From an uncultured Candidatus Saccharibacteria bacterium (GTDB lineage: Bacteria > Patescibacteriota > Minisyncoccia > Phycocordibacterales > JACOZG01), in assembly GCA_964564105.1 (NCBI GenBank), contig CAZLZS010000003.1:1-56418 (forward strand): a stretch of DNA of 56,418 nt. The letters are read 5' to 3'. The notes beneath the pieces were generated by a model. The model was not told the origin of the DNA. It was given only the letters and a program-made list of their open reading frames with translations, and ran no database searches. Position numbers and translations under genes: made by a program. This document shows positions 28,367 to 53,347 of the stretch, piece after piece. Every line of letters starts with the position of its first letter. The first letter of the stretch is position 1.

Positions 28367-28370
28367 ATTC

Positions 28371-28432: not shown

Positions 28433-28436
28433 ATTT

Positions 28437-37502: not shown

Positions 37503-37862
37503 CTAAAAAGCCGAGGAGCCGATTTTATCGACAATGCCGAGCACCGGGAGGGGCACGAGGCAAAAGGCAATGGCCTCAAAACACGGCGTGCCGCCAGCCG
37601 GTAGCGCCGTGCCCAAGACATTGGGCCCGGGCGTGAACACATTGTAGTAAGGGAAGATAACCGTGCCGGAAGTGATGAGAAAGCGCCCGGGTCGCGGCGC
37701 GCCAACCGTAATGGCCACGCCATTGCAGCAATACTCCACCACCAAAATCCGGCCGCCAAAGGGAATCAGGCCCTGGCCGGAGGCGCGCAAGCCGCCGCCG
37801 AAGAAAAAGAAAATCATTCCCAGCGCGGCGACGGACAGAAAAATTAAATAAATTTTGGTCAT
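37503..37862 (-). CDS. Small secreted Cys-containing hypothetical protein
   Basis: 119 aa with a signal peptide (MTKIYLIFLSVAALGMIFFFF). It has a 4-nt overlap with the upstream IPT-domain gene. Confidence 0.5.
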   Translation of the reverse strand: MTKIYLIFLSVAALGMIFFFFGGGLRASGQGLIPFGGRILVVEYCCNGVAITVGAPRPGRFLITSGTVIFPYYNVFTPGPNVLGTALPAGGTPCFEAIAFCLVPLPVLGIVDKIGSSAF

Positions 37863-38389
37863 AAATCCAGCACGAATTCACCCGGGGTCTTGGTCGCGCC
37901 GTTCGCGTTTCTAATGTAAAAACGATAACGCAGTTCCGGAAAGGTCTCGGTTTTAATCGCCCCGAGATTAGCCGGCAGGCCCGGCGGCTCAACGCGCAGA
38001 GTGATGGTTTGGCCGTCGGGCGAGGAGAGATCGGGAAGAGTGCTGTAACTGGCGTAAACATTGTTGCCGGTCGGCGTAAAACCCGAACCGCGGATGGTAA
38101 TGATTGTACCAACCCCGCCGTGGGACGGTGTGATACCAGAAATTTCCGGCTGGCCATAAATTGTTAGAGGAGAAATCGGGGTGGCGACTGATTTTTCCGG
38201 CGCCGGCCGGTAAACCCCGTTAGAAACTTCGTTTCTAACGGGGTAAATAATTGTCGGCCTGTTTTGAGCCGCTAAAACCTCACTCAGGCGCGTGAGTAAA
38301 ACTTGCAATTGCCTCAATAATTCCGGGTTGATGATCAGGGCTGACCACAACAGGATCGAGGCGGCTAATTTCTTATTCATTTTATCCAC
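37859..38389 (-). CDS. Secreted IPT/TIG-like domain protein
   Basis: 176 aa with a signal peptide. An IPT-like segment is present (ISGITPSHGGVGTIITIRGSGFTPTGNNVY). The linker PVRNEVSNGV is encoded by the palindrome at 38214-38244. Confidence 0.6.
   Translation of the reverse strand: MDKMNKKLAASILLWSALIINPELLRQLQVLLTRLSEVLAAQNRPTIIYPVRNEVSNGVYRPAPEKSVATPISPLTIYGQPEISGITPSHGGVGTIITIRGSGFTPTGNNVYASYSTLPDLSSPDGQTITLRVEPPGLPANLGAIKTETFPELRYRFYIRNANGATKTPGEFVLDL
38214..38244. repeat. 31-nt perfect palindrome ACCCCGTTAGAAAC-TTC-GTTTCTAACGGGGT inside a CDS (CCCGTTAGAA family)
   Basis: Exact 14-bp arms. It is identical to the copy at 52111-52141 except for one loop base. Confidence 0.9.
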
Positions 38390-38432: not shown

Positions 38433-38502
38433 ACCCCGTTAGAAGTTCAACCACCTTAACTTATTCACTAAAAACTGCTGTGAACGAAACTTCTAACGGG
38501 GT
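38433..38502. repeat. Perfect 15-bp inverted repeat ACCCCGTTAGAAGTT / AACTTCTAACGGGGT with a 40-nt spacer (CCCGTTAGAA family)
   Basis: The arms lie at 38433-38447 and 38488-38502, in the divergent promoter region. The right arm runs into TATAAT (38502-38507), 8 nt before the ATG at 38515. Confidence 0.9.
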
Positions 38503-38514
38503 ATAATGTAGCCG

Positions 38515-39186
38515 ATGAAGAAACTCGGGATAATAATTTTGTTTATCCTGTTATTTTCCGTCTGGGGTTTATGGTATTTGGGCGGCCAGAAGACTGTCGA
38601 GCCGACAGCGACGGCACCAACTGAATTGACTGGGGATGAGAAACTCGTCGCTCTGGTACAGAAAACCCGCGCCGCAACCGGCCGACCCCTGCTTGATCCG
38701 GCGGCCGCGGCCGGCGCTAGGCCGGCGAGCGCCTTTCAAGTGACGGAAAACGACCTAGTGATCGAGACGGGCGACAATCCGGACGAAACGCGGCGCTACG
38801 GCCAAGCGGTCAGCCAACTTTTCCAAAATATCGCACCCAGTCAAGCCGGCACTGAATTAAAACTGGCGCTCGAGGCCCTGGAAGAGCAGTCGCCGGTCAA
38901 GGCCGCGACCGTAAAGCAAGAGGCCGAGCGCTACGGCCGGTTGGCCGCCGGACTCCAGCGACTGGTGGCGCCAGCGGCACTAAAAGTCGTGCATCTAAAT
39001 CTTTTAAACGCGGTTTTGGGTCTGGCCGAGATTGATTCGTACTTGGCGGAAATCTTGACTGAACCGATCCTGGCCCTGGATCAGGCACCGATCTTTGCGC
39101 ACCGCTACGAGCGGCTGGCCGGCGCGGTGATGATTCTGAATCAAGTGCTGGCGGTTCATAATCTGCCCTTGATTGCCGCCTTATGA
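38515..39186 (+). CDS. Membrane-anchored hypothetical protein, first gene of the T4SS-like operon
   Basis: 223 aa with an N-terminal TM helix (LGIIILFILLFSVWGLWYL) and a helical body. It has a 4-nt overlap with the next gene. Confidence 0.55.
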   Translation: MKKLGIIILFILLFSVWGLWYLGGQKTVEPTATAPTELTGDEKLVALVQKTRAATGRPLLDPAAAAGARPASAFQVTENDLVIETGDNPDETRRYGQAVSQLFQNIAPSQAGTELKLALEALEEQSPVKAATVKQEAERYGRLAAGLQRLVAPAALKVVHLNLLNAVLGLAEIDSYLAEILTEPILALDQAPIFAHRYERLAGAVMILNQVLAVHNLPLIAAL

Positions 39187-42100
39187 TCATGATCACGACA
39201 AAAACAATTCGTCTTCCCACGGCGGCCATTCTGATTCTCACCTTGCTGGGGCAATTCCTGGCGCCGCTCACGGCCTTCGCCCAACCGACTGACCTGCCGC
39301 CGGCCGAGACGGTCGTCGGCCCGCCGGCGCCAGATATAGTTGGCTTGCCCGGCGGCCCGGCCGGGCCGCCGTCTGAACTCGCGCCCCTGCCGCCAGGCCG
39401 GCCGAAAAACCCAGCCCAGATTCTGGCTGAAGCGCGGCGCGACGACGCCCGGGCCTGCCAAGCCGAGTCCACGGCCGGCACCGGCGTCTCGGCCCTGAAA
39501 CCAGAATCATTGCAAAACGGCTTGGCCGACGACATCGGCCAAGCCCTGCCGCCCATTGTGAGCGACGCCCTGACCAATGACCTGCCGCGGCGATTGCAAA
39601 CCGCGCTCCAGCGGGAACTGCCGAGCATTGTGAGCGACGGCCTGCGCCGCGAACTGCCGCCGCTGCTGGCGGAAAAAATCCAACTCTTAAATCAAGAACA
39701 ATTAGGGAATTTTGAAACTCATTTTCCGGACTTGCTTAACGACACGATCCGCGAGGCCCTGCCCGGCATTCTGACTGACGGGATTGAGACCCGCCTGCCG
39801 CGGCTCGTGGGTGAGAGCGTCCGCGGCTCGCTCGGCGCGCGCCTGGGCCCGGGGCTTAACAATGCCACCGAGATTTTCGTCCGGGCCGAGTTCGGCGGCC
39901 AGATTAACGACCAGATTTCAGAAATCTTCGGTTTCATGATTTCTTACATCGGCGATCTGTTTAATTCCGTCAATGCTTCAATTGAAGGATTACGGGCAAC
40001 AGTTACTGCTTTACAATCTTCACTGACTAGCCTCACTGGCATCTTATCTATACCGGGTCAAATCAATCAATTGATTCAGCAAATCAATGATTTGAGGCAA
40101 AAAGCCACAGAGATTGGACAATTCATCACCTGGTTGCAAAATCGCCAGGCCAATCAAGAACAAATGACCGAAGATATCATCAAGGGGTTGACCGTAACGA
40201 TCCAGGAAAGTTTGACTCGGGGCGACACCATGGAACGGCTGACTGACGCCCTGGCCGCGGACATGACCGGGCCGATTATTAATTCGCTGGAAGGCGGCAT
40301 GGATGACATCACAACCGCGTTCTTGGAACCGGTCAACCGAGCGCTCGGCAGCATTGAGAATCTGCCCAATGTTTTCTTTGATCCAATCAACCGCGCGGTT
40401 GACAACTTGGTCAACACCGCGACCGGCGTGATTGACGCCCAAATCCGCGCTGTCACGAGCGCCATCACCGCGCCGATTGATGCCATCACCCAATCCCTAA
40501 GCCAGACGATTGAGCAGACAATGACCGCGGCGCTCCAACCAATCACCGGCACTCTAACCGGCGTAGTTAGCCAAGCCAGTAATTTTATTGCCGCGCCGAT
40601 CAATCTTGCCAGCCAGCAGATTAATGATTTCTTTCTCGGCTCTGGTCTGCCGGCGGCTGATTTAAGTCAAGCGCTTTATCCAAATAGTTATTACCAGTCC
40701 CTGCAAGCGCCGCCCTCGCCGCTTGACCCGACCACCCTGCCCGGTTACACCCCGGGGGTCGGCGAGATCGGCAGTCCTCTGGCCGGACCGCCGGCAGAAC
40801 TGCCGCTCACCGAGACTATCAGCGGAATGGCGAGCGAAGGCGCCAGCGCTGCAAGCGGCGCCACCCAGGGGATTGCCGAGCAAGCGGTCAACAATCAAAT
40901 TACGGCCGGCGACCTAACCGGCAATATCGGCACCACTTTTGCCCAAGTAGGACTAACCGGCGCTATAAACGCCACTCTCGGCGGACTGGTGGCCGGCATA
41001 CCGATTATCGGCGGCGCGGCTCAAAATTTGGTGGCTAATTTCGCCAATCGGGCCGCGGCGGCGCTCGGCTTATCGGGCGCGGTCGGTCTCGCTGTACCAA
41101 CTACTGAAATCGGCGCCCTGCTTTCCACCGAGCAAAGCACCAACCAGATCACCGGCCAGATCAAGGGCATCAATGAACAGATGAAGAAAACCCAGGATCA
41201 GATTTTGAAACTGACGGCCGAGATCAAAAGTTTGCAGATTGAATCCTGCACCTATTTGAAAACCATCCGCCGGATCCAATTGGCTTTTGAGGCCAAAGAA
41301 TTTGTCCAAGACCCGGACGCCAAAAAAGCCCTTGGCCGGGCAATTGAATATCACAACCGGCAATTATTTACGGATTTGCGAGCCGGGCGGGCGCCAGCGA
41401 ACGCGGAAAATCTTAATCCGGAAAAGGATAAAGAACCGGTGGTGCCTAAGAATCTCAACGCGGCCATTACCGAAGGACGGCAAGAGGTAACCGGCGCTTT
41501 TCTTGATGAACTGAAAAACATTGACTCGCGGTTCAAAGACGAGATTGTGACCAAACTCAAAACCGAGCAGGCGGAGACATTTGCCGACCGGATTAAACCA
41601 ACCTTGAGCCAAGAACAATATCAGAAAATTACCTCGGGCGAAGAATTCAGCTGGGACACCTGGCTGGAACTGGTCAAACCCCAGAACACGCCGGCCGGAG
41701 CCGAATTCTTGGCCCGGGAAGAATTGGCGCGACGCCAGGCCGCCAACGAACAAAATACCCGCGAAGAACTGCTGGCTGGCCTCGGTTTTCTGAACACCGA
41801 CGAGTGCGCGAAATACAGCGAGAACGGCTGGTGTATCGAGCGAAAAACTCTAACCCCGGGATCGGTTAGCCAGGGTTACGCCGTAGAAGGACTAACGAGC
41901 GTCATTCGCAAAACCGAAAACACCGAGATTCTTGATGACTACATCACGCCGGAACTGGAGACCAATCTGGAACGGCTCAAAGATATCGGTGATTACAGCG
42001 GCGCGAGCGAGGACACCGTCTATAACCAGCCCGACCCGTGCCCGGGGCCCGGACCCTGCCCGGACTCGGGCTGGGGCAAGATTCCGGCGCCGCGGCCGGC

Positions 42101-42818
42101 TGGCACCGGTTACACCACACCGCCGACTCCCGATCCAGCTGAACTGCCGCCTCTCATTCTGCCGGAGATCATTAATAATGTTTTGACGCTTAATCTGACT
42201 TTTGAAACACCGACCCTGACAGAAGTGAATAACGGCGCGGGCAATACTACGATTATCAAATGGCGATCTACAAACGCCGAGGAGTGCCGCGCGGACAACA
42301 ACTGGCTCTCGGGTTCAACCGCCGGCGCGCCGGCCGCGGCCGCGGGCTCTCTTCTCACGGCGACTGGCGAACGGCGCATTACCCATCCAGTAGATCTTGA
42401 TCTCCAGATTACCCGTCTCGCCGCTGACGGCAATCAAAGCGATGTGCCATTAACCAAGCCTGAAACGGCCGATAAACTCCGGGCAAAAATTATCTTTGAC
42501 GCGCGAACCGTCAGCGACATCCAGCCGGACGATATCTACCAAATCGTCTTCACCAGCGCCGGCGCCGCTGATCTTGGTTTTGAAGTCGGCGGCGCGGGAA
42601 AAATTAATCCGGCCACGCCAGCCACAGTAGTCCAGCTCATCCAGCGGGAAATCGCGAACTTGCTGACGCAAGAAACGGCGCTCGCCAGCGAGCTCGCGAA
42701 ATACATTTTCACCGGCTTTTCCGGCGGCACCCTCACCATCACGCCGAAACTGACTTACGGCTTATCCTGCTACCAGGGCGCGAGCCAAGTCAGCCAGAGC
42801 GTGGAGATAAAACGATGA
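39183..42818 (+). CDS. Very large secreted hypothetical protein (1211 aa) of the T4SS-like operon
   Basis: It has a signal peptide ending AFAQP and a Pro-rich segment. Repeated (E)LP..(V/L)(S/T)D motifs, long coiled-coil-like regions and a C-terminal beta-rich region follow. It overlaps both neighbours by 4 nt. Confidence 0.65.
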   Translation: MIMITTKTIRLPTAAILILTLLGQFLAPLTAFAQPTDLPPAETVVGPPAPDIVGLPGGPAGPPSELAPLPPGRPKNPAQILAEARRDDARACQAESTAGTGVSALKPESLQNGLADDIGQALPPIVSDALTNDLPRRLQTALQRELPSIVSDGLRRELPPLLAEKIQLLNQEQLGNFETHFPDLLNDTIREALPGILTDGIETRLPRLVGESVRGSLGARLGPGLNNATEIFVRAEFGGQINDQISEIFGFMISYIGDLFNSVNASIEGLRATVTALQSSLTSLTGILSIPGQINQLIQQINDLRQKATEIGQFITWLQNRQANQEQMTEDIIKGLTVTIQESLTRGDTMERLTDALAADMTGPIINSLEGGMDDITTAFLEPVNRALGSIENLPNVFFDPINRAVDNLVNTATGVIDAQIRAVTSAITAPIDAITQSLSQTIEQTMTAALQPITGTLTGVVSQASNFIAAPINLASQQINDFFLGSGLPAADLSQALYPNSYYQSLQAPPSPLDPTTLPGYTPGVGEIGSPLAGPPAELPLTETISGMASEGASAASGATQGIAEQAVNNQITAGDLTGNIGTTFAQVGLTGAINATLGGLVAGIPIIGGAAQNLVANFANRAAAALGLSGAVGLAVPTTEIGALLSTEQSTNQITGQIKGINEQMKKTQDQILKLTAEIKSLQIESCTYLKTIRRIQLAFEAKEFVQDPDAKKALGRAIEYHNRQLFTDLRAGRAPANAENLNPEKDKEPVVPKNLNAAITEGRQEVTGAFLDELKNIDSRFKDEIVTKLKTEQAETFADRIKPTLSQEQYQKITSGEEFSWDTWLELVKPQNTPAGAEFLAREELARRQAANEQNTREELLAGLGFLNTDECAKYSENGWCIERKTLTPGSVSQGYAVEGLTSVIRKTENTEILDDYITPELETNLERLKDIGDYSGASEDTVYNQPDPCPGPGPCPDSGWGKIPAPRPAGTGYTTPPTPDPAELPPLILPEIINNVLTLNLTFETPTLTEVNNGAGNTTIIKWRSTNAEECRADNNWLSGSTAGAPAAAAGSLLTATGERRITHPVDLDLQITRLAADGNQSDVPLTKPETADKLRAKIIFDARTVSDIQPDDIYQIVFTSAGAADLGFEVGGAGKINPATPATVVQLIQREIANLLTQETALASELAKYIFTGFSGGTLTITPKLTYGLSCYQGASQVSQSVEIKR

Positions 42819-45208
42819 TGAAAAAAGGTGTTTTAACTTCCATCCTCTGCTTGATTCTGTTATCTGGTTTTTCTTCGCTCGTCAGACCTAATATATCTTT
42901 TGCCGACCATGACCGCTTTCACACTCTAGAACAACAGTTGGCCAACGGAGAAATAACCGAGGCGGATTACAATCGTTTCGTTGCAGAGGAAAACATGCTA
43001 CAAGTGATTGAAACCAACCTTAAATATCTGCGAAACCAATTGAACTCACCAGGGATAACAGAGGAAGAAAAACGAGTGATAAATGAAGAAATTGCTCGCC
43101 AGCAAGCCGAACTTAGATCGAGAGGCAGGGTGCAAGACCGAAATGTAACGGCCGCCGTGGTGGGTGGCAGAAACACTAGCTACGAATCCTGCGGCTGGTT
43201 TAGTTTCAATGTCCCATGTTGGATCAGAAACGGCATCACTTTTATCGGGGTGGTTTTTAAAGAAATCTTCGGCGGGGTCTTATCTGTAGTTGGGGTGATA
43301 TTTGATCAATCGGTGAAATTCTCCATCAGCGAATTTTCCAGTTTAGCCGGCGGAACCGATGAAACGGGCAACGCCGTTCAGGTGACTTGGAAAATTCTTC
43401 GCGATCTGGCCAATCTGTTTTTCATTTTCATCCTGCTTTACATTGCCATAGGAATGATTTTGCAATTATCCAGTTTCGGCGGGAAGCGGCTCCTAGTCAA
43501 TGTAATTATCGTCGCGCTCCTGATTAACTTCTCGGCCTTTTTCACCCGGATCGTGATAGACGCCTCCAATGTCGCGGCTTATCAATTTTATAAAGCCATA
43601 GGATCCTTGGGGGGAGAAAACAACGGGAATATTGCCGCGGCCTATATGAAAACCTTGCCGCTCGGCACCGCTTTCAGTTTAACCGAAGTCGCGGCCACCG
43701 ATGTAGCCGGATTGGTCTATGAAGAGTTCGGGGCTTTTGCCAGAACCACCTTGCTGGCCTTCGGCACAGTGGTGATGTTAATAATTGCCATCTTTCTATT
43801 TCTCGCGGCCACCATTCTTTTTGCTGTGCGGACTGTTACTTTAATTTTCATGATTATTCTCTCGCCGCTCGCTTTTTTAATGTATGCCTTCCCCAATCAA
43901 AAAGGCTTGTTTGATAAATGGTTGGACACTCTGCTTAAACAATCGTTTTTCGCACCTCTCTATCTTCTAATGATATATGTCTCGCTTCTGGTTCTTAATA
44001 GTCCGCCTCTTCAAGCCCAATTAAGGGCCTCTACTGCCAGTTTCAGCCATCTCGTTTTTTACTATCTTATTGCCGCTGGCCTGATGTTCGGCGCCTTGAT
44101 CATCGCCAAATCGCTCGGGGCCAAGGGGGCGTCAGGGGCGATAGGTATCGGCAAAAAATGGGCGGGTTACGGCGTTGGGGCAATGTACACTCCAGTCCGG
44201 GGAATTGGCCGCGGCATCAAACATAAGGTTCAAACCGGACTTGGACAATTAGAGACCGGGAAGGGGAGAATCGGCGGAACCGCCACAATGAAAAAACTCA
44301 TCAGCGTCATTCCCTACGCCCGGGCTGGTATGCAGCGGGCGGCCGGCGCTTATCGGGCTGAAGTGGCCAAGAAGGGTGAGGACTTCTCCCGATTAAAGAC
44401 GAGCGAGATGCTCCGTCGTCTCGGCCAAACGGGTATTTTCCCGACCACCAGAATGGCGATGCTCCAAGCCATTGCCAAGAAAGATGACTTGGACGAGGTG
44501 CCGGTGAAAGAATTGCAGCGGGCGCGTGAACTTATGAAACAAGTCGGCGTCTCTACCACGGCAATGGAGAAATTACGACCTGATGCCGGAGAAAACCCGG
44601 TGGAAATTGAAAAAATGGTGGCCCGGCACAAACAGCCGGATATCGCTAAACTCCACAGAGTCATCGTTAGCGGTGAGGGAGCCAATGATGTTGTGGGCAA
44701 GGACGACCAGGGTAAGGATATAACCCGCCGCGATGCCTTAGCCAGTGCCATGATCAATCAATACGACGGCGGCTCGGCTAATTCGATCATCCGCCGCGGT
44801 GACGCTATTTCCGATGCTTTCCTAAGCGAACTGCTGAAACGGGCCAACAGCAAAGCCGGCACGACAGGCGAACGCAGTTCTGAACAAATAATCAAATATC
44901 TGGAAGAAGACATCCTTAAACCGATTAATGATAAACTCGCCCAAAAGCAAGAACAGATTAAACAAATTGAGACGATACCGGAAACCCAAAAGACCAGAGA
45001 CCAAAAGAAAGGGTTAAAGAAAGAGGTTGATGATTTGCGCGTCCAAGCCGGCAAGATTGCATCTCACGCGCGTTCATATCGTCTCGGCAATACCAGACGA
45101 GACGCCGGCCTTGACGAATTCGCGGGTAAAAAAGGTCCGGGACCAAAAACCACACCCCCTGCGCCCGCCAATCAACCGGGCGCGCCGGCCGGAGGAGTGG
45201 GAATATAA
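42815..45208 (+). CDS. VirB6/TrbL-like polytopic membrane protein with a long hydrophilic C-terminal extension
   Basis: 797 aa. It has a signal/anchor and a short coiled coil, then about 6-8 TM helices (LANLFFIFILLYIAIGMIL, LLVNVIIVALLINFSAFF, VMLIIAIFLFLAATILFAV, and others). A charged tail of about 330 aa follows. Position and topology match T4SS channel subunits. Confidence 0.55.
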   Translation: MMKKGVLTSILCLILLSGFSSLVRPNISFADHDRFHTLEQQLANGEITEADYNRFVAEENMLQVIETNLKYLRNQLNSPGITEEEKRVINEEIARQQAELRSRGRVQDRNVTAAVVGGRNTSYESCGWFSFNVPCWIRNGITFIGVVFKEIFGGVLSVVGVIFDQSVKFSISEFSSLAGGTDETGNAVQVTWKILRDLANLFFIFILLYIAIGMILQLSSFGGKRLLVNVIIVALLINFSAFFTRIVIDASNVAAYQFYKAIGSLGGENNGNIAAAYMKTLPLGTAFSLTEVAATDVAGLVYEEFGAFARTTLLAFGTVVMLIIAIFLFLAATILFAVRTVTLIFMIILSPLAFLMYAFPNQKGLFDKWLDTLLKQSFFAPLYLLMIYVSLLVLNSPPLQAQLRASTASFSHLVFYYLIAAGLMFGALIIAKSLGAKGASGAIGIGKKWAGYGVGAMYTPVRGIGRGIKHKVQTGLGQLETGKGRIGGTATMKKLISVIPYARAGMQRAAGAYRAEVAKKGEDFSRLKTSEMLRRLGQTGIFPTTRMAMLQAIAKKDDLDEVPVKELQRARELMKQVGVSTTAMEKLRPDAGENPVEIEKMVARHKQPDIAKLHRVIVSGEGANDVVGKDDQGKDITRRDALASAMINQYDGGSANSIIRRGDAISDAFLSELLKRANSKAGTTGERSSEQIIKYLEEDILKPINDKLAQKQEQIKQIETIPETQKTRDQKKGLKKEVDDLRVQAGKIASHARSYRLGNTRRDAGLDEFAGKKGPGPKTTPPAPANQPGAPAGGVGI

Positions 45209-45214
45209 TGGAAT

Positions 45215-46057
45215 ATGCCTAATCCAACGCTCCAAGAAATTAGCAAGCGCCTTGAGGTCATACCGCCGACCCTAAAAAACCTCTATCTCTCGGCCGAACT
45301 CGGCCAAAAATACCGCGGGCTCGAGGACAAATACGTTCTCGAATTTGAGCCAGCCGGGCGGCTAGCAAACGAGGTTGATTTCACCTTATTAAAATTCGCC
45401 CCCGTTTCCGATCTAGCCGAACGCATTCAAAGCCAAGTCGGAATGCCAGAAGATCGGGCCCGAAATATCACCTTAGACATTGATAGAGAGATACTTTCTC
45501 CGGTTAGGCAATTATTAAACGCTCAAACTGGCGCCGAACCAAAACAAGAAGAACATGGGTTTGGACGCCTACCGGCGGTAATCCAAAAAGCACTTGAGGC
45601 CATTGATTTGCATGGCATTATGCGAAAAATCGGCACTGAACAAAAACTCCACATTGACCAAATGGGAATACTAGATAACGAGGTGGGGGCGGTACTGGTC
45701 GGCGAAACTCGGCCGGAGGAATTTTTGTCGCGCCTCAAGTCAAAACTTCAGATTGACCAAACCGCGGCCGAGAGCATCGGCCGCGAGGCGAATGAACAGA
45801 TTTTCCTGCCGATCCGAGAGTCGCTACGGAAACTGCACGAGGAGACGGAAATGAGCGGGGGGGTGAAAACAATTGCTTCTCTGCCAAAACCGGAAACTCC
45901 GGCCGGGGAATTGCCGGACAAAGATAAACTGCTGGACGAGATCGAGCATCCGTCCAAGACGCCCGAGGACACGGTGTTTGAGAAAAAACTCGGGCAACTC
46001 TTCCGCATCCCACGGGAAGAAGTCGATTTAGACCCGTATCTGGAAAAGCCAGAGTAG
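45215..46057 (+). CDS. Acidic hypothetical protein with an internal duplication
   Basis: 280 aa. Two related segments are seen (LANEVDFTLL...DIDREILSPVRQLL and LDNEVGAVLV...EANEQIFLPIRESL). No TM helix is present. Confidence 0.5.
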   Translation: MPNPTLQEISKRLEVIPPTLKNLYLSAELGQKYRGLEDKYVLEFEPAGRLANEVDFTLLKFAPVSDLAERIQSQVGMPEDRARNITLDIDREILSPVRQLLNAQTGAEPKQEEHGFGRLPAVIQKALEAIDLHGIMRKIGTEQKLHIDQMGILDNEVGAVLVGETRPEEFLSRLKSKLQIDQTAAESIGREANEQIFLPIRESLRKLHEETEMSGGVKTIASLPKPETPAGELPDKDKLLDEIEHPSKTPEDTVFEKKLGQLFRIPREEVDLDPYLEKPE

Positions 46058-46104
46058 AAGCAACGTAAAACTCAAAACGAAAAGCGTAAAACATACAACT
46101 AAAA

Positions 46105-46485
46105 GTGCAAAACACTGAGCAGGAAAACAAAAGGGGGTTAAAAGAAAGATCCTATCATTATGCATTGGAAATAATAGCCCTGGTAAACCATCTGCCCAAA
46201 CAAGACTCGGCTGCAATGGTTATCTACAAGCAACTAATACGTAGCGCCACCAGCATCGGAGCCAATATTATAGAAGCCCAAGCCGGCAGTTCAAGAAAAG
46301 ATTTTACAAACTTTTTCAGTTACGCCCTAAAATCCGCCAATGAGAGCAAATTTTGGTTAGGATTATTGAGAGATTCTGGTAAAATAGACAGCGGTCGAGC
46401 CAGTGGCCTGTTAAACGAAACTGCCGAATTGGCCAACATTTTAGCTTCAAGTATCATAACCTTAAAAGGCAAGAGGAATTTATGA
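46105..46485 (+). CDS. Four-helix-bundle protein (23S rRNA intervening-sequence protein family)
   Basis: 126 aa with YHYALEIIALVNHLP......IYKQLIRSATSIGANIIEAQAGSSRKDFTNFFSYALKSANESKFWLGLL, the family signature. Confidence 0.85.
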   Translation: MQNTEQENKRGLKERSYHYALEIIALVNHLPKQDSAAMVIYKQLIRSATSIGANIIEAQAGSSRKDFTNFFSYALKSANESKFWLGLLRDSGKIDSGRASGLLNETAELANILASSIITLKGKRNL

Positions 46486-46537
46486 TTTTAGTTTTAACTT
46501 GTTGTTTTAAATTTTTCGCTTTTCACTTTACGCTTCC

Positions 46538-46939
46538 ATGAACTTTCAGGTGCCGCAATTTATCGAGGTGGAAGATAAAATCTTCGGCCCGCTGACCTTC
46601 AAACAATTCGTCTATCTCGCCGGTGGCGGGGGCGCGGTGTTCATGGCCTATGCCCTTCTACCAATTTATCTGAGCCTCTGGCTGATGATCCCGCTCACCA
46701 TTCTGGCGCTCGCCCTGGCGTTCTATAAAGTCAACAACCGGCCATTCGTCAATATCCTAGAATCGGCCTTTCGTTACACCCTCACGACCAAACTCTACCT
46801 CTGGAAAAAACAACCAAAAGCCGTCGAGCCGGCCGGCATCGCTTTAGGCCGGGAAAAACCAGTCGAGATTCCGAAACTATCCCGGAGCAAACTGCGCGAT
46901 CTGGCTTGGAGTTTGGATGTCAAGGAAAACATTAGATAA
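46538..46939 (+). CDS. PrgI-family (VirB3-like) T4SS membrane protein
   Basis: 133 aa with QVPQFIEVEDKIFGPLTFKQFVYLAGGG followed by two TM helices, the pattern of PrgI family proteins encoded next to VirB4. Confidence 0.7.
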   Translation: MNFQVPQFIEVEDKIFGPLTFKQFVYLAGGGGAVFMAYALLPIYLSLWLMIPLTILALALAFYKVNNRPFVNILESAFRYTLTTKLYLWKKQPKAVEPAGIALGREKPVEIPKLSRSKLRDLAWSLDVKENIR

Positions 46940-46972
46940 CGCAAAACTAAAAGCGAAAAACTAAAAACATAA

Positions 46973-47632
46973 ATGGAAACGGCAAAGGTAGAAAACAAAA
47001 CCAAGGCCCGGGCGGCGCAGGACTTTGTGCCGATTGAAGAAATCCGCGACGGCGTGGTGATTTTGAAAACGAGCGGCCTGCGGCTCGTGCTTATCTCATC
47101 CTCAATCAACTTCGCGCTTAAATCCGAGGACGAACAAACCGCTCTACTCCTGCAGTATCAGAACTTTCTCAACGCGCTCGAATTCCACATTCAAATTTTC
47201 GTCGAATCGCGAAAACTGGATATCCGGCCCTACCTGACAATTCTGGAAGATCTGGAGAAAAATCAATTGAACGATTTGATTAAGATTCAAACTCGCGAAT
47301 ACGTCGAGTTCGTTCGCACCTTCACCGAGAACACCAACATTATGTCCAAAACTTTTTTCGTCGTCATTCCCTACGAGCCGCCGGTGCTTGAGAAACCGAG
47401 CGGCATCTTCGTCAAACTCGGTCTGAGTCGCCGCCCCGCCTCGGGCGGGGCGGCGGGGGCGCCGGATAAATTTGAAGAATACCGCTCGCAACTGGAACAG
47501 CGCGCCACCGTCGTGGCGCAAGGGCTCTCACGCTTGGGCCTGCGGGTAGTCCAGCTCGGCACCGAGGAATTGGTCGAGTTGTTCTTTAAAATTTTCAACC
47601 CGGGCGAAGCCGAAGCGCCGCAGTTATCATGA
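46973..47632 (+). CDS. Stand-alone VirB4 N-terminal-domain-like protein
   Basis: 219 aa. FVPIEEIRDGVVILKTSGLRLVLISSSINFALKSEDEQTALLLQYQNFLNALEFHIQIF resembles the extreme N-terminus of Gram-positive VirB4 homologues (recalled pattern, not searched). It has an ATGA overlap with the ATPase gene. Confidence 0.5.
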   Translation: METAKVENKTKARAAQDFVPIEEIRDGVVILKTSGLRLVLISSSINFALKSEDEQTALLLQYQNFLNALEFHIQIFVESRKLDIRPYLTILEDLEKNQLNDLIKIQTREYVEFVRTFTENTNIMSKTFFVVIPYEPPVLEKPSGIFVKLGLSRRPASGGAAGAPDKFEEYRSQLEQRATVVAQGLSRLGLRVVQLGTEELVELFFKIFNPGEAEAPQLS

Positions 47633-49485
47633 GCTTGTTTGGCAAGAGAAAACCATCAGAAAACATCATCGCGCCGATTCTGCCGGCCGACATTTACAAA
47701 ATGGGGGTGCTCGAGCTCAAAGACATCATCGCGCCCTCGGCCTTAAAGATTACCCCGCGCCTGATCCACCTCGGCGAGAAAATGGCCCGGACCCTGTTTG
47801 TCATTTCCTATCCGCGGTTTCTAGCCGGCGATTGGTTTTCGCCCATCGTCAATCTGGACAAAATTTTTGACATTTCCATTCTCGTCCACCCCATCGACAC
47901 GGCGGTGGCTCTCCGGCAGCTCGAAAAAAAGGTCGCCGAGGTCCAAAGCCAGATCAGCATCAAAGAGGAAAAAGGGCTGGTGCGCGATCCGATCCTCGAC
48001 ATCGCTTATCAGGATATTGAAAATCTCCGCGACGCTCTCCAGCAGGCGCGGGAGAAAATTTTTGATGTCGGACTTTACCTGACGATTTACGGCGACTCGG
48101 AAGACGAACTCAATAAAATTGAAACCGAGATCAAGGGCATCCTGGACGCCAAATTGGTCTACCTGAAACCGGCTCTGTTCCAACAGGAAGAGGGTTTCAA
48201 AAGCACCTTGCCGGTGGCGGAGGATCGGCTCGGCGTCAATTACAAACTCAATTCCGCGCCGCTGTCGTCGCTGTTCCCATTTGTCTCTTTTGATCTGACT
48301 TCCAACCGCGGCATCCTCTACGGCATCAACCGGCATAACTCATCGCTGGTTCTGTTTGATCGTTTTTCGCTGGAAAATTACAACTCGGTGATCTTCGCCA
48401 AGTCCGGCGCCGGCAAATCCTACGCCACCAAACTGGAGATTCTGCGAAGCTTAATGTTTGACGCCGACATTATCGTGGTTGATCCCGAGCGGGAGTATGA
48501 ATTCCTGGCCGAGGCCGTGGGCGGCCGATATTTCAACATTTCTCTCACCTCCGAGCACCACATCAACCCCTTTGACCTGCCGTACCCCCGCGAGGACGAA
48601 TCGCCGGCCGATGTCCTGCGCTCGAACATCATCAACCTCGTCGGCCTGTTCCGGCTGATGTTGGGCGGCCTGACGCCCGATGAGGATGCGATCTTGGACA
48701 GCGCCATTACGGAAACCTACGCCTTGAAAGACATCGCGCCGGAGGCGGATTTTACCGGCAAGCCGGCACCCTTGTTATCGGATTTAGAGCTGGTGCTAGC
48801 CGGGATGGAGGGCGGCGAGTCACTGGCTCAACGGCTTGCCAAATACACCCAGGGCACCTGGGCTGGTTTTATCAACAAGCCGACCAACGTGGACATCAAT
48901 AAAAAATTCGTCGTGTTTTCGGTCCGCGATATGGAAGATGAGTTAAAGCCAGTGGCGATGTATATTGTCATGCACAACATCTGGAACGCCATCCGGCGGA
49001 ACTTGAAAAAGCGGCTCTTGGTGATTGACGAGGCCTGGTGGATGATGAAGGCCAAGGATACGGCATCCTTTCTTTTCTCCCTGGTCAAACGCGGTCGGAA
49101 ATACTATTTGGGTGTGGCGACGATCACCCAGGATGTCGGCGACTTCTTACTCTCGCCCTACGGTTTGCCGATCATCACTAATTCCTCGCTCCAGCTCCTC
49201 TTGAAGCAGTCGCCGGCCTCAATTGATCTGGTCCAGAAAACCTTTCAGCTTACTGATGAAGAAAAGTATCTGCTCTTGGAATCAAATGTTGGAGAGGGGA
49301 TCTTCTTCGCCGGACTCAAACACATCGCCGTCAAAATCATCGCCTCCTACACCGAGGATCAAATCATCACCTCGGATCCGTCTCAACTCCTGACGATCAA
49401 AAAGGCCAAGCAAGAACTGGCGGCGGGTGACTGGGAAGTCGGACTTCCAAATGGAAGTCCGACTTCCCAACCTCGGCAAACATGA
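47629..49485 (+). CDS. virB4: VirB4-family T4SS ATPase
   Basis: 618 aa with Walker A FAKSGAGKSY and Walker B LLVIDEAWWMM, plus GVATITQD. The N-terminal half has the VirB4 pattern (RTLFVISYPRFL..DWFSPI). Confidence 0.85.
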   Translation: MSLFGKRKPSENIIAPILPADIYKMGVLELKDIIAPSALKITPRLIHLGEKMARTLFVISYPRFLAGDWFSPIVNLDKIFDISILVHPIDTAVALRQLEKKVAEVQSQISIKEEKGLVRDPILDIAYQDIENLRDALQQAREKIFDVGLYLTIYGDSEDELNKIETEIKGILDAKLVYLKPALFQQEEGFKSTLPVAEDRLGVNYKLNSAPLSSLFPFVSFDLTSNRGILYGINRHNSSLVLFDRFSLENYNSVIFAKSGAGKSYATKLEILRSLMFDADIIVVDPEREYEFLAEAVGGRYFNISLTSEHHINPFDLPYPREDESPADVLRSNIINLVGLFRLMLGGLTPDEDAILDSAITETYALKDIAPEADFTGKPAPLLSDLELVLAGMEGGESLAQRLAKYTQGTWAGFINKPTNVDINKKFVVFSVRDMEDELKPVAMYIVMHNIWNAIRRNLKKRLLVIDEAWWMMKAKDTASFLFSLVKRGRKYYLGVATITQDVGDFLLSPYGLPIITNSSLQLLLKQSPASIDLVQKTFQLTDEEKYLLLESNVGEGIFFAGLKHIAVKIIASYTEDQIITSDPSQLLTIKKAKQELAAGDWEVGLPNGSPTSQPRQT

Positions 49486-49835
49486 TGGGCGGCGGGAAGA
49501 TCCAATATCGCATTCCGGTTTGGGAAAGCAGTTTGATGATCGCCGTGGCGGTAATTTATGACCTAGTCCAAATTGCCTTGACTTGGCTACTCGGTTGGCT
49601 TGGCCTTGGTTTTATCGGCGCTTGGCTCATGACGCTCTGGGCCGGCCTAACCTTTGGCTTGTGGTTTACCTTGAAAGGAGCGAGTATAATGAACGGCAGG
49701 CGCGCGGCTTCGTTCGGCCTCGGCGCGATCATTGAGGCCATCCCGCTCTTAAACGCTCTCCCGGGGTGGACGGTTTCCACAATCATAAGTTTGTCGGTCA
49801 CGCGGGCCGAGGACATTTTAACCAGTAGGCGATGA
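49482..49835 (+). CDS. Small polytopic membrane protein (T4SS-like operon)
   Basis: 117 aa with 3-4 TM helices. Both ends overlap neighbours by 4 nt. Confidence 0.55.
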   Translation: MMGGGKIQYRIPVWESSLMIAVAVIYDLVQIALTWLLGWLGLGFIGAWLMTLWAGLTFGLWFTLKGASIMNGRRAASFGLGAIIEAIPLLNALPGWTVSTIISLSVTRAEDILTSRR

Positions 49836-50527
49836 AAAAATTACTTATTATCTCGCTATTGATTCTTGCTCCCGTCTTCACCGGAGCGCAAACTTCGGCA
49901 GTAGATCTTGTTTGGGAAGCCGAGACTTATGTTCCGCCCGGCTATCGCGGTCGCACTCGGCCTAGCCCCGAGAGTCTGGTCCGGGTGGTGGCGATCACGT
50001 CGATTAAAAATCCGATTTTCCATTGGCGGAAAGACGGCGCGGACCTAAAGAGCGCCTCCGGCGCCGGCAAAAACACGTTTGACTTCCGCGCCGCCCCAAG
50101 CGGCAGTAATTTAATCGAAGTAACGGTAACGCGCTCGGACGGCTCGATCGGCGCCTCTGGCGCGGCTCAGATCCCCATCGCCGCGCCGAAAATTTTATTC
50201 TACGAGGTTAAAGACGGCCAGATTGATTACCGTCGGGCGCTGAAAAACTTAAATATTGTCACTGACCAGACCAAAATTATCGCCGAGCCGTTTTATTTTT
50301 CATCAATAGATTGGCTCAACCGCCGGCTCGTCTTCAACTGGTCGGCTAATCAGCAAAAGGTCGAACCAGCGACCGAAGACCCGCGCTTCCTGACGCTCAT
50401 CACCAACGCCGATTCCGGCGCCGGCGAAACTACGCTTGACTTAAAAATCACCAATACCGAACATCCGCTCCAAACCGCCGCGGCCAAGTTACTGATCAGT
50501 TTCGGTCAGTCAGGTTTTGGATTTTAA
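49832..50527 (+). CDS. Secreted hypothetical protein (T4SS-like operon)
   Basis: 231 aa with a signal peptide (MKKLLIISLLILAPVFTGAQT) and beta-rich sequence. Confidence 0.55.
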   Translation: MKKLLIISLLILAPVFTGAQTSAVDLVWEAETYVPPGYRGRTRPSPESLVRVVAITSIKNPIFHWRKDGADLKSASGAGKNTFDFRAAPSGSNLIEVTVTRSDGSIGASGAAQIPIAAPKILFYEVKDGQIDYRRALKNLNIVTDQTKIIAEPFYFSSIDWLNRRLVFNWSANQQKVEPATEDPRFLTLITNADSGAGETTLDLKITNTEHPLQTAAAKLLISFGQSGFGF

Positions 50528-50532
50528 TTATT

Positions 50533-50880
50533 ATGTTGAGAAATAAAAAATTATGGATCCTGTTCACACCAGGTGTTCTTCTGTTAGAACCGATCTCCGA
50601 CCCCGCAACCCAATCTACTCTTTCTCAACCAGATAGTTTAACCACTTATCTAGGCACTATCTTCCCGATCATCATCGGCCTGGCCGCCACTTTAGCGATA
50701 ATTATGATTGTGATCGGCGGCCTGGAATATATTTTGAGTCCCATACCAGGCAAAAAAGAAGAAGGGAAGAGGCGGATTACTGAAGCAATCTGGGGGTTGA
50801 TTCTTGCCCTGGCCGCTTATTTGATTCTCAAAACCATTAACCCCAATTTGGTAACTCTGCAGTTTCTTATTCCATCATGA
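50533..50880 (+). CDS. VirB2/TrbC-like T4SS pilin
   Basis: 115 aa. Two hydrophobic helices flank a short charged loop (IIGLAATLAIIMIVIGGLEYILSPIPGKKEEGKRRITEAIWGLILALAAYLILKTI), the typical T4SS pilin architecture. Confidence 0.65.
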   Translation: MLRNKKLWILFTPGVLLLEPISDPATQSTLSQPDSLTTYLGTIFPIIIGLAATLAIIMIVIGGLEYILSPIPGKKEEGKRRITEAIWGLILALAAYLILKTINPNLVTLQFLIPS

Positions 50881-52178
50881 CCAAACGATTGATAATCTTA
50901 ATCGTCATTTTAATCGTTCTGCTGGCAGGCGTGGGGATTTGGTGGTGGGTGGCGTCGAGAGCGGCGCCTCCGGCGGCGCCGCCGGTTGATCTAAGTCAGG
51001 CCTTTCCGGTTTCGCCGCCTCGGCCGCCGGCGCCAGTTACCGGAACAACATCGATAACATCACTAGCGACGACACCGATTCCCGAAACGCCCAGCTACCG
51101 ATCCAACCGACTTATCACTTTGAGCGAACGCGCCGTGGCCGGTGTGACGATTATTCCTGCCGCCACCTCTACCGAATCCGACCGAGTCTTATTTCTGGAG
51201 CGCGAAACTGGTCTGATTGTGGAAATGGCTCTGGCCGAGCGCGCCAGACGCGAGCTGGCGCGGCTACCGCTCCGGGCGCCGCTGGCCGAAACGATTTTAA
51301 CTTTAGACTCTCAAAAATTATCGGTTTGGTTTTCCACCATTGCCAGCACTGGTCAAAAAAATTATTTTAGCGGCGCGGTCAATCTCGACAGCGGCGCCAC
51401 TGACAGCTTGACCTTGCCGGAAATTGAATCCGCGCCCCTCGGCGACGCGGTGCAAAACTTGACTCTGGCCCCGGGCCGCGACCGGCTCTTTACTCTCGAA
51501 CGAGTGGGGCAAGAAACGATCGGCAAGGTGCTTGATTTGAAAATTAAAAAGAGCCAGTTGGTTTTCAACTCCCGCGCCAATCAGTGGCTCGTCCACTGGC
51601 CGGAGAAAAATCTGATTGCCCTAACCAGCAAACCAACGGCCGAAGCCCCTGGTTATCTTTATTTATTGAATTTGAGAAATGCTGACTGGCAAAAAATATT
51701 CGGCGGCGTGAACGGTCTCGCCACCCTGGTGAGCCCTGACGGGCAAAAAATTCTCTACAGCCGAAGCAACGGTCGCGGCTTGGAACTTGGGTTGTACGAC
51801 CGACTAAAGAATGAGAGTCGGACTCTGGCCATCGCCACTCTGCCGGAAAAATGTGTTTGGGCGGGCGATGCCGCAACAATCTATTGCGCCGTGCCGCGAT
51901 CTTTGCCTCGGGCGACTTACCCGGACGATTGGCTAGCGGGCGAAATAATCTTTGATGATTTACTATGGCAAATCAACGTTGAAAGCGGCGTGAGCCGCCT
52001 CAGCTGGGCCGACGAGCCCGGACTCGGCGATGTTATCAATCTCCTGACCGTTCGCGGCGGCGAGAAATTCATCTTTATTGACCGGCTGACGAGCCGTCTT
52101 TTTCTGATTGACCCCGTTAGAAACTTTGTTTCTAACGGGGTTGATGAGTTAATACCGCCGCCGCTTGCCGCCGAATAA
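50877..52178 (+). CDS. Membrane-anchored protein with a Pro-rich linker and a beta-propeller-like (TolB/PD40-like) domain
   Basis: 433 aa with a TM helix (LIILIVILIVLLAGVGIWWWV), a PPAAPP linker and a PD40-like segment (LVSPDGQKILYSRSNGRGLELGLYD). The last 23 codons run through the palindrome and overlap the yidC 3' end. Confidence 0.55.
   Translation: MTKRLIILIVILIVLLAGVGIWWWVASRAAPPAAPPVDLSQAFPVSPPRPPAPVTGTTSITSLATTPIPETPSYRSNRLITLSERAVAGVTIIPAATSTESDRVLFLERETGLIVEMALAERARRELARLPLRAPLAETILTLDSQKLSVWFSTIASTGQKNYFSGAVNLDSGATDSLTLPEIESAPLGDAVQNLTLAPGRDRLFTLERVGQETIGKVLDLKIKKSQLVFNSRANQWLVHWPEKNLIALTSKPTAEAPGYLYLLNLRNADWQKIFGGVNGLATLVSPDGQKILYSRSNGRGLELGLYDRLKNESRTLAIATLPEKCVWAGDAATIYCAVPRSLPRATYPDDWLAGEIIFDDLLWQINVESGVSRLSWADEPGLGDVINLLTVRGGEKFIFIDRLTSRLFLIDPVRNFVSNGVDELIPPPLAAE
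52111..52141. repeat. 31-nt perfect palindrome ACCCCGTTAGAAAC-TTT-GTTTCTAACGGGGT at the convergent 3' ends of two genes
   Basis: Exact 14-bp arms. The yidC stop codon TAG (52132-52134, minus strand) lies in the right arm. Confidence 0.9.
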
Positions 52179-52848
52179 GAAGTTCATGGACAATGGCAAA
52201 CAGATTGCTGGTCAACCAATAGAGCGAGATCGCCGCCGGCAAGCTGGCTGAAGCAAAAACAATGAAGATCGGTAGCCAGTAGCGCATTTGTTTTTGGATC
52301 TGGGAAGCCGGGGATGTGGGGCTAGAAACAGTGCCGGGAGCCGCTAGCCATAACTGGATAAATTGCGACAACCCGACCAATAAAGAAAGGGGTAGGAAAG
52401 CTTTAGTTAAATCTATTAACCCCAACCAATCAGCCGAGATTGTTTCTGGCCGCGGCACAAATGAATAGAGAAGGTCGGGATGCAGGGTGGCGCTGTCGCG
52501 GAAAACAAAAAAAAGAGCCAGGACAATCGGAATCTGGATCAAAATCGTCCAGAAGCTAGTCAGAGGATTAACTCCGTGAGTTTGATACAGAGCCATGATC
52601 TGTTTCGCTTGCTCATTTCTGTCTTGCTGATAATTTTTTTTCAGGGTCTGCAACTGCGGCTCGAGAAGTTTTAGTTTTTTCTGCATTTTCAGTGTTTGGT
52701 GTTGAAATGGCAAAAGCGCCAGTTTAACAATGATGGTTAAAACAATAATGGCCCCGCCCAGATTCTGGCCGGGCAAAAAAGCGCTGATAGCGATCAGAAG
52801 ATTATACAGGGGGTTGAAGAAAATTTGCCGCCAGAGATTGGAAATCAT
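52132..52848 (-). CDS. yidC: Membrane protein insertase YidC (short, Oxa1-like form)
   Basis: 238 aa with LALLPFQHQTLKMQKKLKLLEPQLQTLKKNY and MALYQTHGVNPL. It sits in the conserved position next to rnpA. Confidence 0.9.
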   Translation of the reverse strand: MISNLWRQIFFNPLYNLLIAISAFLPGQNLGGAIIVLTIIVKLALLPFQHQTLKMQKKLKLLEPQLQTLKKNYQQDRNEQAKQIMALYQTHGVNPLTSFWTILIQIPIVLALFFVFRDSATLHPDLLYSFVPRPETISADWLGLIDLTKAFLPLSLLVGLSQFIQLWLAAPGTVSSPTSPASQIQKQMRYWLPIFIVFASASLPAAISLYWLTSNLFAIVHELLIRRQAAAVLTHQPR

Positions 52849-53212: not shown

Positions 53213-53347
53213 TTAGACCGTGAGTCTGGCCCGCTGTTTGCGCCGGCGACGCCGCAACACTCTTCGACCGGCCGGCGACCGTTGTCTAACTAAAAAACCA
53301 TGAGTTTTATAACGTTTTCTTTTTTTAGGTTGAAAGGTTTGCGACAT
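53213..53347 (-). CDS. rpmH: 50S ribosomal protein L34
   Basis: Not in the ORF track (44 aa). Hand translation gives [44 protein letters not shown], the L34 signature. Confidence 0.9.

Follow-up and report, generated by a model that had tools for sequence, protein, structure and literature searches.

A type IV secretion-like gene module beside dnaA in a Patescibacteria genome and the partner proteins encoded with it

The module and its recognisable core

The stretch of Patescibacteria DNA analysed here (contig CAZLZS010000003.1; hereafter the window) is 56,418 nt long and carries, at positions 38515-52178, a gene module that encodes the core of a type IV secretion system (T4SS) alongside six lineage-specific proteins whose positions are conserved across 80 species. 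Twelve open reading frames (ORFs), all on the + strand, lie in this interval, with coordinates exactly as listed in a first-pass annotation made from the sequence alone. Every one of the six 4-nt start/stop overlaps listed there is an ATGA (39183-39186, 42815-42818, 47629-47632, 49482-49485, 49832-49835 and 50877-50880), and the other intergenic gaps in the module are 5-52 nt long. The first-pass annotation had treated all twelve ORFs as a single coupled unit. This description stands for 11 genes, which are co-oriented and translationally coupled, and does not stand for a 126-aa ORF, a sporadic insertion of the 23S_rRNA_IVP family that is described below. The sequence TATAAT was read directly at 38502-38507, 7 nt upstream of the first ATG; a consensus promoter scan does not list it, and the promoter and terminator scan of the module returned nothing decisive.

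The core consists of a split VirB4 (TrsD plus VirB4), a PrgI/VirB3-like protein, a single pilin of the VirB2 type and a putative channel protein that resembles an extended VirB6. The VirB4 ATPase (47629..49485, +; 618 aa) matches the Pfam families P-loop_TraG at 88.9 bits (gathering score, GA, 25.8), AAA_10 at 39.2 bits (GA 27.5) and DUF87 at 29.5 bits, and both a Walker A motif (AKSGAGKSY) and a Walker B motif (LLVIDEAW) are seen in its translation. The gene upstream (46973..47632, +) has a stop codon that overlaps the virB4 start (ATGA) and encodes a 219-aa protein, unassigned in the first-pass annotation, which, judged by its profile matches, is TrsD, a homologue of the VirB4 N-terminal domain detached from the rest of the protein. 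In NCBIfam this protein matches VirB4_plasma (E = 1.3e-8, profile positions 93-233 of 894), the CD1110 VirB4 (E = 1.7e-4) and TrsD (E = 5.3e-4), with the VirB4_plasma and TrsD matches falling below the curated cut-offs; the precomputed annotation of the contig labels it TraC-like (weak). Because the match is to the N-terminal domain of FATA-type VirB4 proteins and the two genes overlap by ATGA, we read TrsD and VirB4, 837 aa in sum, as the two parts of a split VirB4.

Two genes upstream of virB4 lies the gene for a small membrane protein of the PrgI/VirB3 type (46538..46939, +), which scores 49.6 bits against Pfam PF12666 (GA 27). The pilin gene (50533..50880, +) encodes a hairpin of two transmembrane (TM) segments, as in VirB2, and its product matches T4SS_pilin (PF18895) at 46.1 bits (GA 26.6), TrbC at 27.3 bits and, in NCBIfam, the Mbov_0395 ICE pilin-like family of a Mycoplasma integrative and conjugative element (ICE) with E = 1.4e-5. 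A search of the window for further pilin copies found this one only.

The polytopic membrane protein encoded at 42815..45208 (+) had been called VirB6/TrbL-like. It has a signal/anchor segment, about six TM segments between residues 144 and 431 and a hydrophilic C-terminal domain of ~360 aa; because of these TM segments and this C-terminal domain we take it to be a putative 'extended VirB6'. Its residues 203-426 match Pfam TrbL along nearly the whole profile (positions 5-210 of 215), but at 22.0 bits (E = 1.6e-4), short of the GA of 25.9. TrbL is also matched, at E <= 0.01, by 6 of 41 orthologues, while the family profile had no match among PDB sequences. These weak but repeated matches are consistent with a protein of the VirB6/TrbL type. 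Profile searches in Pfam and NCBIfam therefore bear out the first-pass calls of VirB4, PrgI and the pilin, and the VirB6 call weakly.

Partner proteins with conserved positions

VirB4 was scanned for with one genome taken per species, and each protein of the window was then compared by tblastn with 80 loci of other species, in which VirB4 is 73-90% identical to that of the window. Many of these loci carry titles of Paceibacteria/Parcubacteria (Kaiser-, Taylor-, Vogel-, Wolfe-, Campbell-, Zambryski- and Nomurabacteria), and many others are titled only 'Patescibacteria group', 'bacterium' or 'uncultured Candidatus Saccharibacteria'. The 80 loci share one invariant order, (p223) (giant) VirB6 p280 PrgI TrsD VirB4 (p117) p231 pilin p433, followed by yidC (-), rnpA (-), dnaA and dnaN; the proteins without a family name are designated here by their length in the window, the giant being p1211. 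A comparison of gene order in related genomes had been proposed with the first-pass annotation, and it returned the same order and the same neighbours in all these loci. An arrangement repeated in 80 further species goes far beyond what chance would produce.

Many of the 80 loci are incomplete at their ends, which affects the counts for individual proteins. TrsD was detected in all 80 (49-68% identity) and PrgI in 77 (44-70% identity); the corresponding numbers are 74 for p231, 64 for the pilin, 62 for p433 (the last gene before yidC), 59 for VirB6 and 43 for p280 (both in the same position as in the window) and 34 for p117 (directly after virB4). The first two genes of the module gave the lowest tblastn counts, 20/80 for the giant and 11/80 for p223. 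Nearly every locus with enough upstream sequence nevertheless encodes an N-terminally hydrophobic protein of 220-350 aa and then a protein of 380-1350 aa before VirB6, so the low counts reflect fast evolution rather than absence. The small upstream proteins form one family that is coherent at the level of hidden Markov models, and the p223 family is kept in position in 34 loci.

The six partners could not be placed by the first-pass annotation. Three of them can now be given a fold class (TolB-like for p433, Ig-like for p231 and a helical bundle for p223), the other three being the giant, p280 and p117. The last gene of the module before yidC encodes p433 (50877..52178, +), which is anchored by an N-terminal TM helix and continues through a Pro-rich linker into a beta-propeller of the TolB type. 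In the PDB its family profile matches TolB propellers with E = 6e-5 and designed 'Cake' propellers with E = 1e-7, and a pair of cysteines (C326 and C337) is invariant. An exhaustive phmmer search of 1.84 billion cluster representatives gave 2,975 matches at E <= 1e-3, of which 528 have E <= 1e-30; nearly all are 400-450 aa long. By these similarities p433 is a member of a large uncharacterised family of TolB-like propellers.

The product of 49832..50527 (+), p231, is an exported or anchored protein with tandem Ig-like beta domains; its family profile matches Ig-like phage decoration proteins in the PDB (Hoc, E = 1.1e-3; 5lxk, E = 4e-3). Most of its relatives are ~335 aa long and have one further Ig-like domain, a third and N-terminal one. 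The protein encoded just before it, p117 (49482..49835, +), is a small basic polytopic membrane protein (pI 10) with 2-3 TM segments and no family in Pfam or NCBIfam. We considered whether p117 and p231 are pieces of one longer protein and rejected this, as the longer relatives of p231 contain the extra Ig-like domain and not the membrane segment of p117.

The acidic p280 (45215..46057, +; pI 5.0) is a predicted cytoplasmic protein with no TM segment and no signal peptide. It is built of two copies of a ~95-aa helical domain, followed by an acidic tail and the motif DPYxE. Its two halves align to one and the same region in relatives, so that the duplication is visible through the relatives and the family profile; direct BLASTP of one half against the other found nothing. 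Residues D273, P274, Y275 and E277 of the C-terminal DPYxE are nearly invariant, while the acidic tail before them is variable, and DPYxE has the look of a short linear element for docking or recognition. Searches with p280 in Pfam, NCBIfam and the PDB produced no match.

The first gene of the module (38515..39186, +), which overlaps the next by ATGA, encodes p223. An AlphaFold2 model built from 22 sequences (mean predicted local distance difference test score, pLDDT, 61.8) has a TM helix at residues 3-23, a disordered linker and an extracytoplasmic all-alpha bundle at residues 89-214, the latter at pLDDT 70-86. A Foldseek search of the PDB with this model retrieved nothing beyond generic helical bundles (best E = 0.3), with no NTF2 neighbour, and the family profiles of p223 and p280 had no matches in the PDB. 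Among the partners p223 is the sole bitopic candidate of VirB8-like size, p231 being Ig-like and p433 a propeller. An identity with VirB8/PrgL, which are NTF2-like, was rejected for p223 in view of the anchored all-alpha model, itself of moderate confidence, and the lack of an NTF2 neighbour. An identity with VirB5 is likewise unsupported, the Foldseek neighbours being generic bundles.

The secreted giant p1211 (39183..42818, +) starts with a signal peptide and continues with a helical extension of ~600 aa, a Gly-rich hydrophobic segment (~591-640), a coiled coil, a core at ~768-922 and a beta-rich C-terminal region. In hhalign, residues 768-922 align to the family profile A8 with a probability of 96.9%, which makes this core a divergent copy of a conserved domain that contains cysteines. 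The family is defined by this Cys-containing domain of ~250 aa, and its typical members are secreted proteins of 430-550 aa; it has 164 matches at E < 1e-5, all of them 'hypothetical' and all from Paceibacteria. At the N-terminus, 14 of 53 typical members match DUF4141 over ~50 residues with scores around the gathering score (best E = 4e-8), and one member matches TrbJ weakly (21 bits against a cut-off of 225 bits); the p1211 of the window has neither a DUF4141 nor a TrbJ match in Pfam. Some members carry extra domains, namely F5/8 type C, Ig-like, PKD and, once, phage lysozyme. A typical member modelled by AlphaFold2 from 53 sequences (pLDDT 63.6) is mostly alpha with a small sheet. This model has no Foldseek neighbour in the PDB (best E = 2), and profile searches of PDB sequences with the core domain and with full-length members found nothing. 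Foldseek, one of the checks that accompanied the first-pass annotation, was run on the models of p223 and of the giant family, and it returned no significant PDB neighbour for either. Structural homology of the giant to VirB5 is thus unsupported; its gene position and the short motif suggest a possible VirB5-like role.

In a related metagenome-assembled genome of Candidatus Vogelbacteria, the giant and VirB6 are annotated as one in-frame protein of 1960 aa (P0028, HYT46_02785), whose C-terminal 800 aa are 69% identical to the VirB6 of the window. The joining could be a true fusion, which would hint at a physical association of the two proteins, or could stem from a single wrong base in the assembly where the two genes overlap by ATGA.

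The 126-aa ORF mentioned above (46105..46485, +) encodes a four-helix bundle of the 23S_rRNA_IVP family (Pfam PF05635, 75.8 bits). IVP-like ORFs occur in five of the 80 related loci, at three different positions in the operon; on account of this sporadic occurrence and shifting position we rejected the ORF as a T4SS component and regard it as an insertion. Imperfect inverted repeats of 38 nt (46074-46111 and 46492-46529; 74% complementary) stand on either side of it, which suggests that ORF and repeats make up a small mobile or processed cassette.

Chromosomal setting and the question of conjugation

Downstream of the module lie yidC (52132-52848, -), rnpA (52860-53207, -), rpmH (53213-53347, -), dnaA (53458-54825, +) and dnaN (54952-56055, +). 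The distances measured from the last ORF of the module, 1.03 kb to rpmH and 1.3 kb to dnaA, agree with the ~1 kb and ~1.3 kb of the first-pass annotation, which had also described the surroundings correctly as core genes. The upstream neighbours are a DUF192 gene and the gene for RNase Y, and the remaining part of the window is made up of core genes (NusA, PPase, ClpP, KsgA, UvrD, ComM, CCA-adding enzyme, five tRNAs, a Mur ligase and Alr). The GC content has no discontinuity across the module and no step at its borders.

Domain searches covered the ORFs of the window of at least 150 aa and the annotated genes in the 10 kb beyond it on the 66.9-kb contig JACOZH010000007.1 (66,906 bp, GCA_016181435.1). 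The first-pass annotation had reported a window that holds no relaxase, VirD4/TraG coupling ATPase, VirB11 or VirB8/9/10, and none of these was found among the window ORFs of this size. The annotated genes in the 10 kb of contig past the window end likewise include no relaxase, type IV coupling protein (T4CP), VirB11 or VirB8/9/10, and the proteins of the module do not match the profiles of VirB7, VirB8, VirB9 and VirB10.

It has to be asked whether the locus is an ordinary or decaying ICE of the Gram-positive type that sits near the origin and still transfers DNA. The components do resemble the conjugation genes of the MPF-FATA class: the TrsD of the window matches the VirB4 proteins of a Mycoplasma ICE and of CD1110, its pilin matches the Mbov_0395 ICE pilin-like family, and a tyrosine recombinase gene (22717-23583) is located beside a low-GC tRNA cluster. 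This recombinase, the nearest one, is however of the XerC/D type and 15 kb away, with core genes (Mur ligase, Alr and RNase Y) in between, and no integrase adjoins the module on the 66.9-kb contig. An adjacent relaxase and coupling protein, or a flanking integrase, had been named in advance as the features of an ordinary ICE; the contig shows neither, and the site is identical in 80 species. In a published survey, relaxases were present in just 103 of 3,035 genomes. With position and order fixed in 80 species and VirB4 73-90% identical, the locus appears to have been inherited vertically. The core-gene flanks, the contig without a relaxase, coupling protein or adjacent integrase, the even GC content of the module and the constant position and order in 80 species together support a chromosomal, non-conjugative locus that is not an ICE; the ICE explanation is largely refuted already, and we consider it very improbable.

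Several other features of the region were recorded. Positions 22000-30000 are low in GC (41-46%, compared with ~52-55% elsewhere) and carry the five tRNA genes, the XerC/D-like recombinase gene and the gene for the CCA-adding enzyme; this segment, a possible island or simply spacer DNA rich in tRNA genes, lies at a distance of 15 kb from the T4SS. Further surface proteins are encoded at 32796-35054 (a 752-aa FG-GAP repeat protein with PKD and Ig domains), 6748-8751 (667 aa, with an InlB B-repeat) and 37859-38389 (a small TIG-domain protein). The TIG-domain ORF immediately precedes the module, on the other strand, and is also present in a few relatives. Beyond the 3' end of the window, after dnaN (L081 11221-21104), follow genes for a ParE-like toxin, a 1170-aa protein without a Pfam match, a class A penicillin-binding protein, bAvd with a reverse transcriptase, and tyrosyl-tRNA synthetase; the pair of bAvd and reverse transcriptase is typical of a diversity-generating retroelement.

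Known relatives and possible function

Systems of this kind have been described before. In a survey of 3,035 Patescibacteria genomes (Quinonero-Coronel et al. 2025, Microb Genom, PMC12102498), VirB4 was found in 2,417, and 2,425 of the VirB4 proteins formed a monophyletic clade of Patescibacteria within MPF-FATA. The same survey found TrsD, PrgI/VirB3, VirB6 and VirB2-like pilins near virB4, VirB8 and VirB1 mostly undetectable and relaxases in only the 103 genomes mentioned above; in Paceibacteria and Microgenomatia the cluster adjoins dnaA, dnaN, rnpA, rpmH and ksgA (PMC12102498). The window locus shares with this clade its chromosomal location beside dnaA, dnaN, rnpA and rpmH, the absence of a relaxase and the set of VirB4, TrsD, PrgI/VirB3, VirB2-like pilin and, as a putative member, VirB6, and it does not differ in kind. 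Where the survey leaves the other neighbours as 'no homology', we find six families conserved in position, three of them with a fold class.

In Southlakia epibionticum ML1 the T4SS genes (SEML1_0004-0019) lie directly after dnaA-dnaN-recF and are essential by transposon sequencing; the T4SS and its pilins are needed for epibiotic growth, coupling and relaxase proteins were noted as missing, and protein export was raised as a possibility (Wang et al. 2023, Cell, PMC10633639). This locus includes an essential gene for an exported Ig-like protein, SEML1_0005 (supplement of PMC10633639). Both this locus and that of the window are near dnaA and dnaN, both have the order VirB6-like, PrgI, TrsD-like and VirB4 as well as a gene for an exported Ig-like protein, and neither includes a relaxase or coupling protein. 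In Southlakia there are six genes for pilins, two giants of the VirB6-like kind, an NTF2-like (VirB8-like) protein and lysozyme/peptidase proteins after VirB4; the window, with its single pilin, lacks hydrolases and NTF2-like proteins and instead encodes the TolB-like propeller, p117, p280 and the pair of p223 and the giant.

A 2025 FEMS review describes a new type of T4SS that may form a pilus conduit, and states that in Southlakia the deletion of comEC abolishes competence and leaves viability intact, while the T4SS is essential (PMC12857230). A perspective in PNAS calls the function of the T4SS 'completely unknown' and proposes it as a route of nucleotide acquisition (PMC11665869). For a cultivated Minisyncoccota/Patescibacteria strain, a 2026 preprint describes tubes that penetrate the host, possibly T4SS pili according to its authors, and the uptake of host RNA (10.64898/2026.06.21.733656). 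The system is thus already described (Wang 2023; Quinonero-Coronel 2025; the 2025 FEMS review), and the window holds another member. The first-pass annotation had called its composition largely uncharacterised, which now holds only in part; the accessory set of the Paceibacteria variant is conserved and still uncharacterised.

More distant systems share parts of this build. The MPF-FATA conjugative T4SSs (pCF10 Prg/Pcf, pGO1 Trs and the Mycoplasma ICE) have PrgI, VirB4, TrsD and a VirB6-type protein in a monoderm build without VirB7, VirB9 and VirB10. They differ in having a relaxase, the T4CP PcfC, a VirB1-type hydrolase and a VirB8-like protein, none of which is found in the window, and usually no VirB2 pilin, which the window does have. 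In Bacteroides conjugative transposons a DUF4141 gene stands beside traJ, which is VirB6-like (PMC10434189). The giant family recalls the Bacteroidetes TraI (DUF4141) and TrbJ/VirB5 by its signal peptide, by the DUF4141-type motif (14/53) and by a gene placed directly upstream of the VirB6-like one, as DUF4141 is to traJ and trbJ to trbL. It departs from them in that the match spans only ~50 residues, the protein of the window has no DUF4141, the core has neither VirB5 nor any other PDB neighbour and the length is 2-6 times that of VirB5. The ComB system of H. pylori is likewise based on VirB4, has no relaxase or coupling protein in the locus and belongs to a naturally competent organism; it works across two membranes with ComB7, ComB8, ComB9 and ComB10, components not found in the module of the window.

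Taken together, we consider it probable (at about 75%) that 38515-52178 is the version found in Paceibacteria (Candidatus Vogelbacteria) of a near-universal chromosomal T4SS of Patescibacteria, derived from MPF-FATA with loss of relaxase and coupling protein, inherited vertically by the origin and serving, as we infer, in host contact and the passage of macromolecules. Several points weigh against this. The VirB6 call is below the Pfam gathering score, with TrbL matched in just 6 of 41 orthologues; the search for a relaxase and a T4CP covers the contig, and VirD4 homologues at a distance from virB4 were numerous in the 2025 survey. The roles of p223, the giant, p231, p433, p280 and p117 are drawn solely from position, topology and fold class, and both AlphaFold models are of moderate confidence (pLDDT 62 and 64) with no significant neighbour in the PDB.

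It is established for T4SSs that VirB4 powers the extraction of pilin and the assembly of the pilus, that VirB3 holds VirB4 at the membrane and that VirB6 forms a channel. By analogy, a VirB4 hexamer with TrsD would dock onto PrgI and VirB6 in the single membrane, with PrgI/VirB3 as the tether of VirB4 and VirB6 as the membrane channel, and VirB4 would power the extraction and polymerisation of pilin into a thin tube across the cell wall. For the part that spans the wall, p433, as an anchored propeller of the TolB type, and the Ig-like p231 may serve as a scaffold. The secreted giant, with the DUF4141/TrbJ-like N-terminus and variable adhesin domains of its family and its occasional fusion to VirB6, could stand with the helical p223 at the distal, host-contacting end.

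Such a machine most likely serves contact with a host cell and the passage of macromolecules, not conjugation. The first-pass annotation had favoured host interaction or DNA uptake in this way, and the core-gene setting, the contig without a relaxase or T4CP and the conservation in 80 species lend support to that view. As to direction, we favour the uptake of host material, a real possibility though short of an even chance, over effector export, which is more tentative, given a locus without a coupling protein, surface partners that all start with Sec-type N-termini and an organism deficient in biosynthesis. A narrower form, in which the machine imports nucleic acids like the ComB of H. pylori or the archaeal Ced and feeds DNA or RNA to an organism without nucleotide synthesis, possibly with ComEC, is possible but again tentative. 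It fits the absence of a coupling protein, as in ComB, the nucleotide-acquisition proposal (PMC11665869) and the host RNA uptake and host-penetrating tubes of the 2026 preprint (10.64898/2026.06.21.733656). The window itself encodes ComEC (1009-2352, on the - strand), ComM (18127-19695) and RecJ (3230-4975). However, the first-pass suggestion of a link between the T4SS and ComEC, whose gene is indeed present as reported, is weakened by Southlakia, in which loss of comEC is not lethal and the T4SS is essential, so that the two are not one pathway (PMC12857230). The module also has no homologues of the VirB7, VirB8, VirB9 and VirB10 counterparts of ComB, none of the partners contains a detected nucleic-acid-binding domain and no experiment ties the T4SS to uptake. 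The ComEC ORF has Competence and DUF4131 domains and no metallo-beta-lactamase domain; like RecJ and the Mg-chelatase-like ATPase of the ComM type, it is not linked to the T4SS.

Export would make the system a translocator that injects proteins into a host bacterium or archaeon, with p1211 or its neighbours as substrates or translocon. Most non-conjugative T4SSs do export effectors, Wang et al. (2023) consider protein export possible, the internal Gly-rich hydrophobic segment and coiled coils of the giant recall translocon proteins, and the DPYxE that follows the acidic tail of p280 could be a recognition signal. Yet there is no T4CP to recruit substrates from the cytoplasm, the giant and the other candidates have Sec-type N-termini and would not need the T4SS to leave the cell, and no effector-like enzymatic domain was found in the module; we regard this explanation as doubtful. 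The pilin, the Ig-like and propeller surface proteins and the adhesin-type domains of the giant family (F5/8 type C, Ig-like and PKD) would also suit an organelle that merely attaches the cell to its host, with nothing passing through. Since Patescibacteria already use type IV pili to attach (PMC12857230), and since the conserved VirB6 channel protein with its large cytoplasmic domain and the cytoplasmic p280 suggest membrane traffic, adhesion as the only function is unlikely.

Few machines have been shown to be essential for the epibiotic life of Patescibacteria, which are very abundant and mostly uncultured, and their T4SS is one of them. The window adds no new kind of system; what it shows is a fixed set of six more proteins that accompanies the four or five recognisable T4SS genes in Paceibacteria. 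New here are the fold classes of p433 (TolB-like), p231 (Ig-like) and p223 (anchored helical bundle), the giant family with its DUF4141/TrbJ-like N-terminus and the IVP insertion. The six partners, among them a propeller with ~3,000 cluster representatives and a giant whose core has no structural relative, are the obvious candidates for what sets this T4SS apart from a conjugation machine. More speculatively, and with low probability, they might form an outer apparatus specific to Paceibacteria, in which the giant, with its new Cys-rich fold and a physical tie to VirB6, and p223 make up a pilus-tip or host-penetrating complex, p433 and p231 a wall scaffold and p280 an adaptor that replaces the coupling protein, the whole being a conduit that imports host nucleic acids or other macromolecules. 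If true, this would amount to nutrition by reverse type IV secretion.

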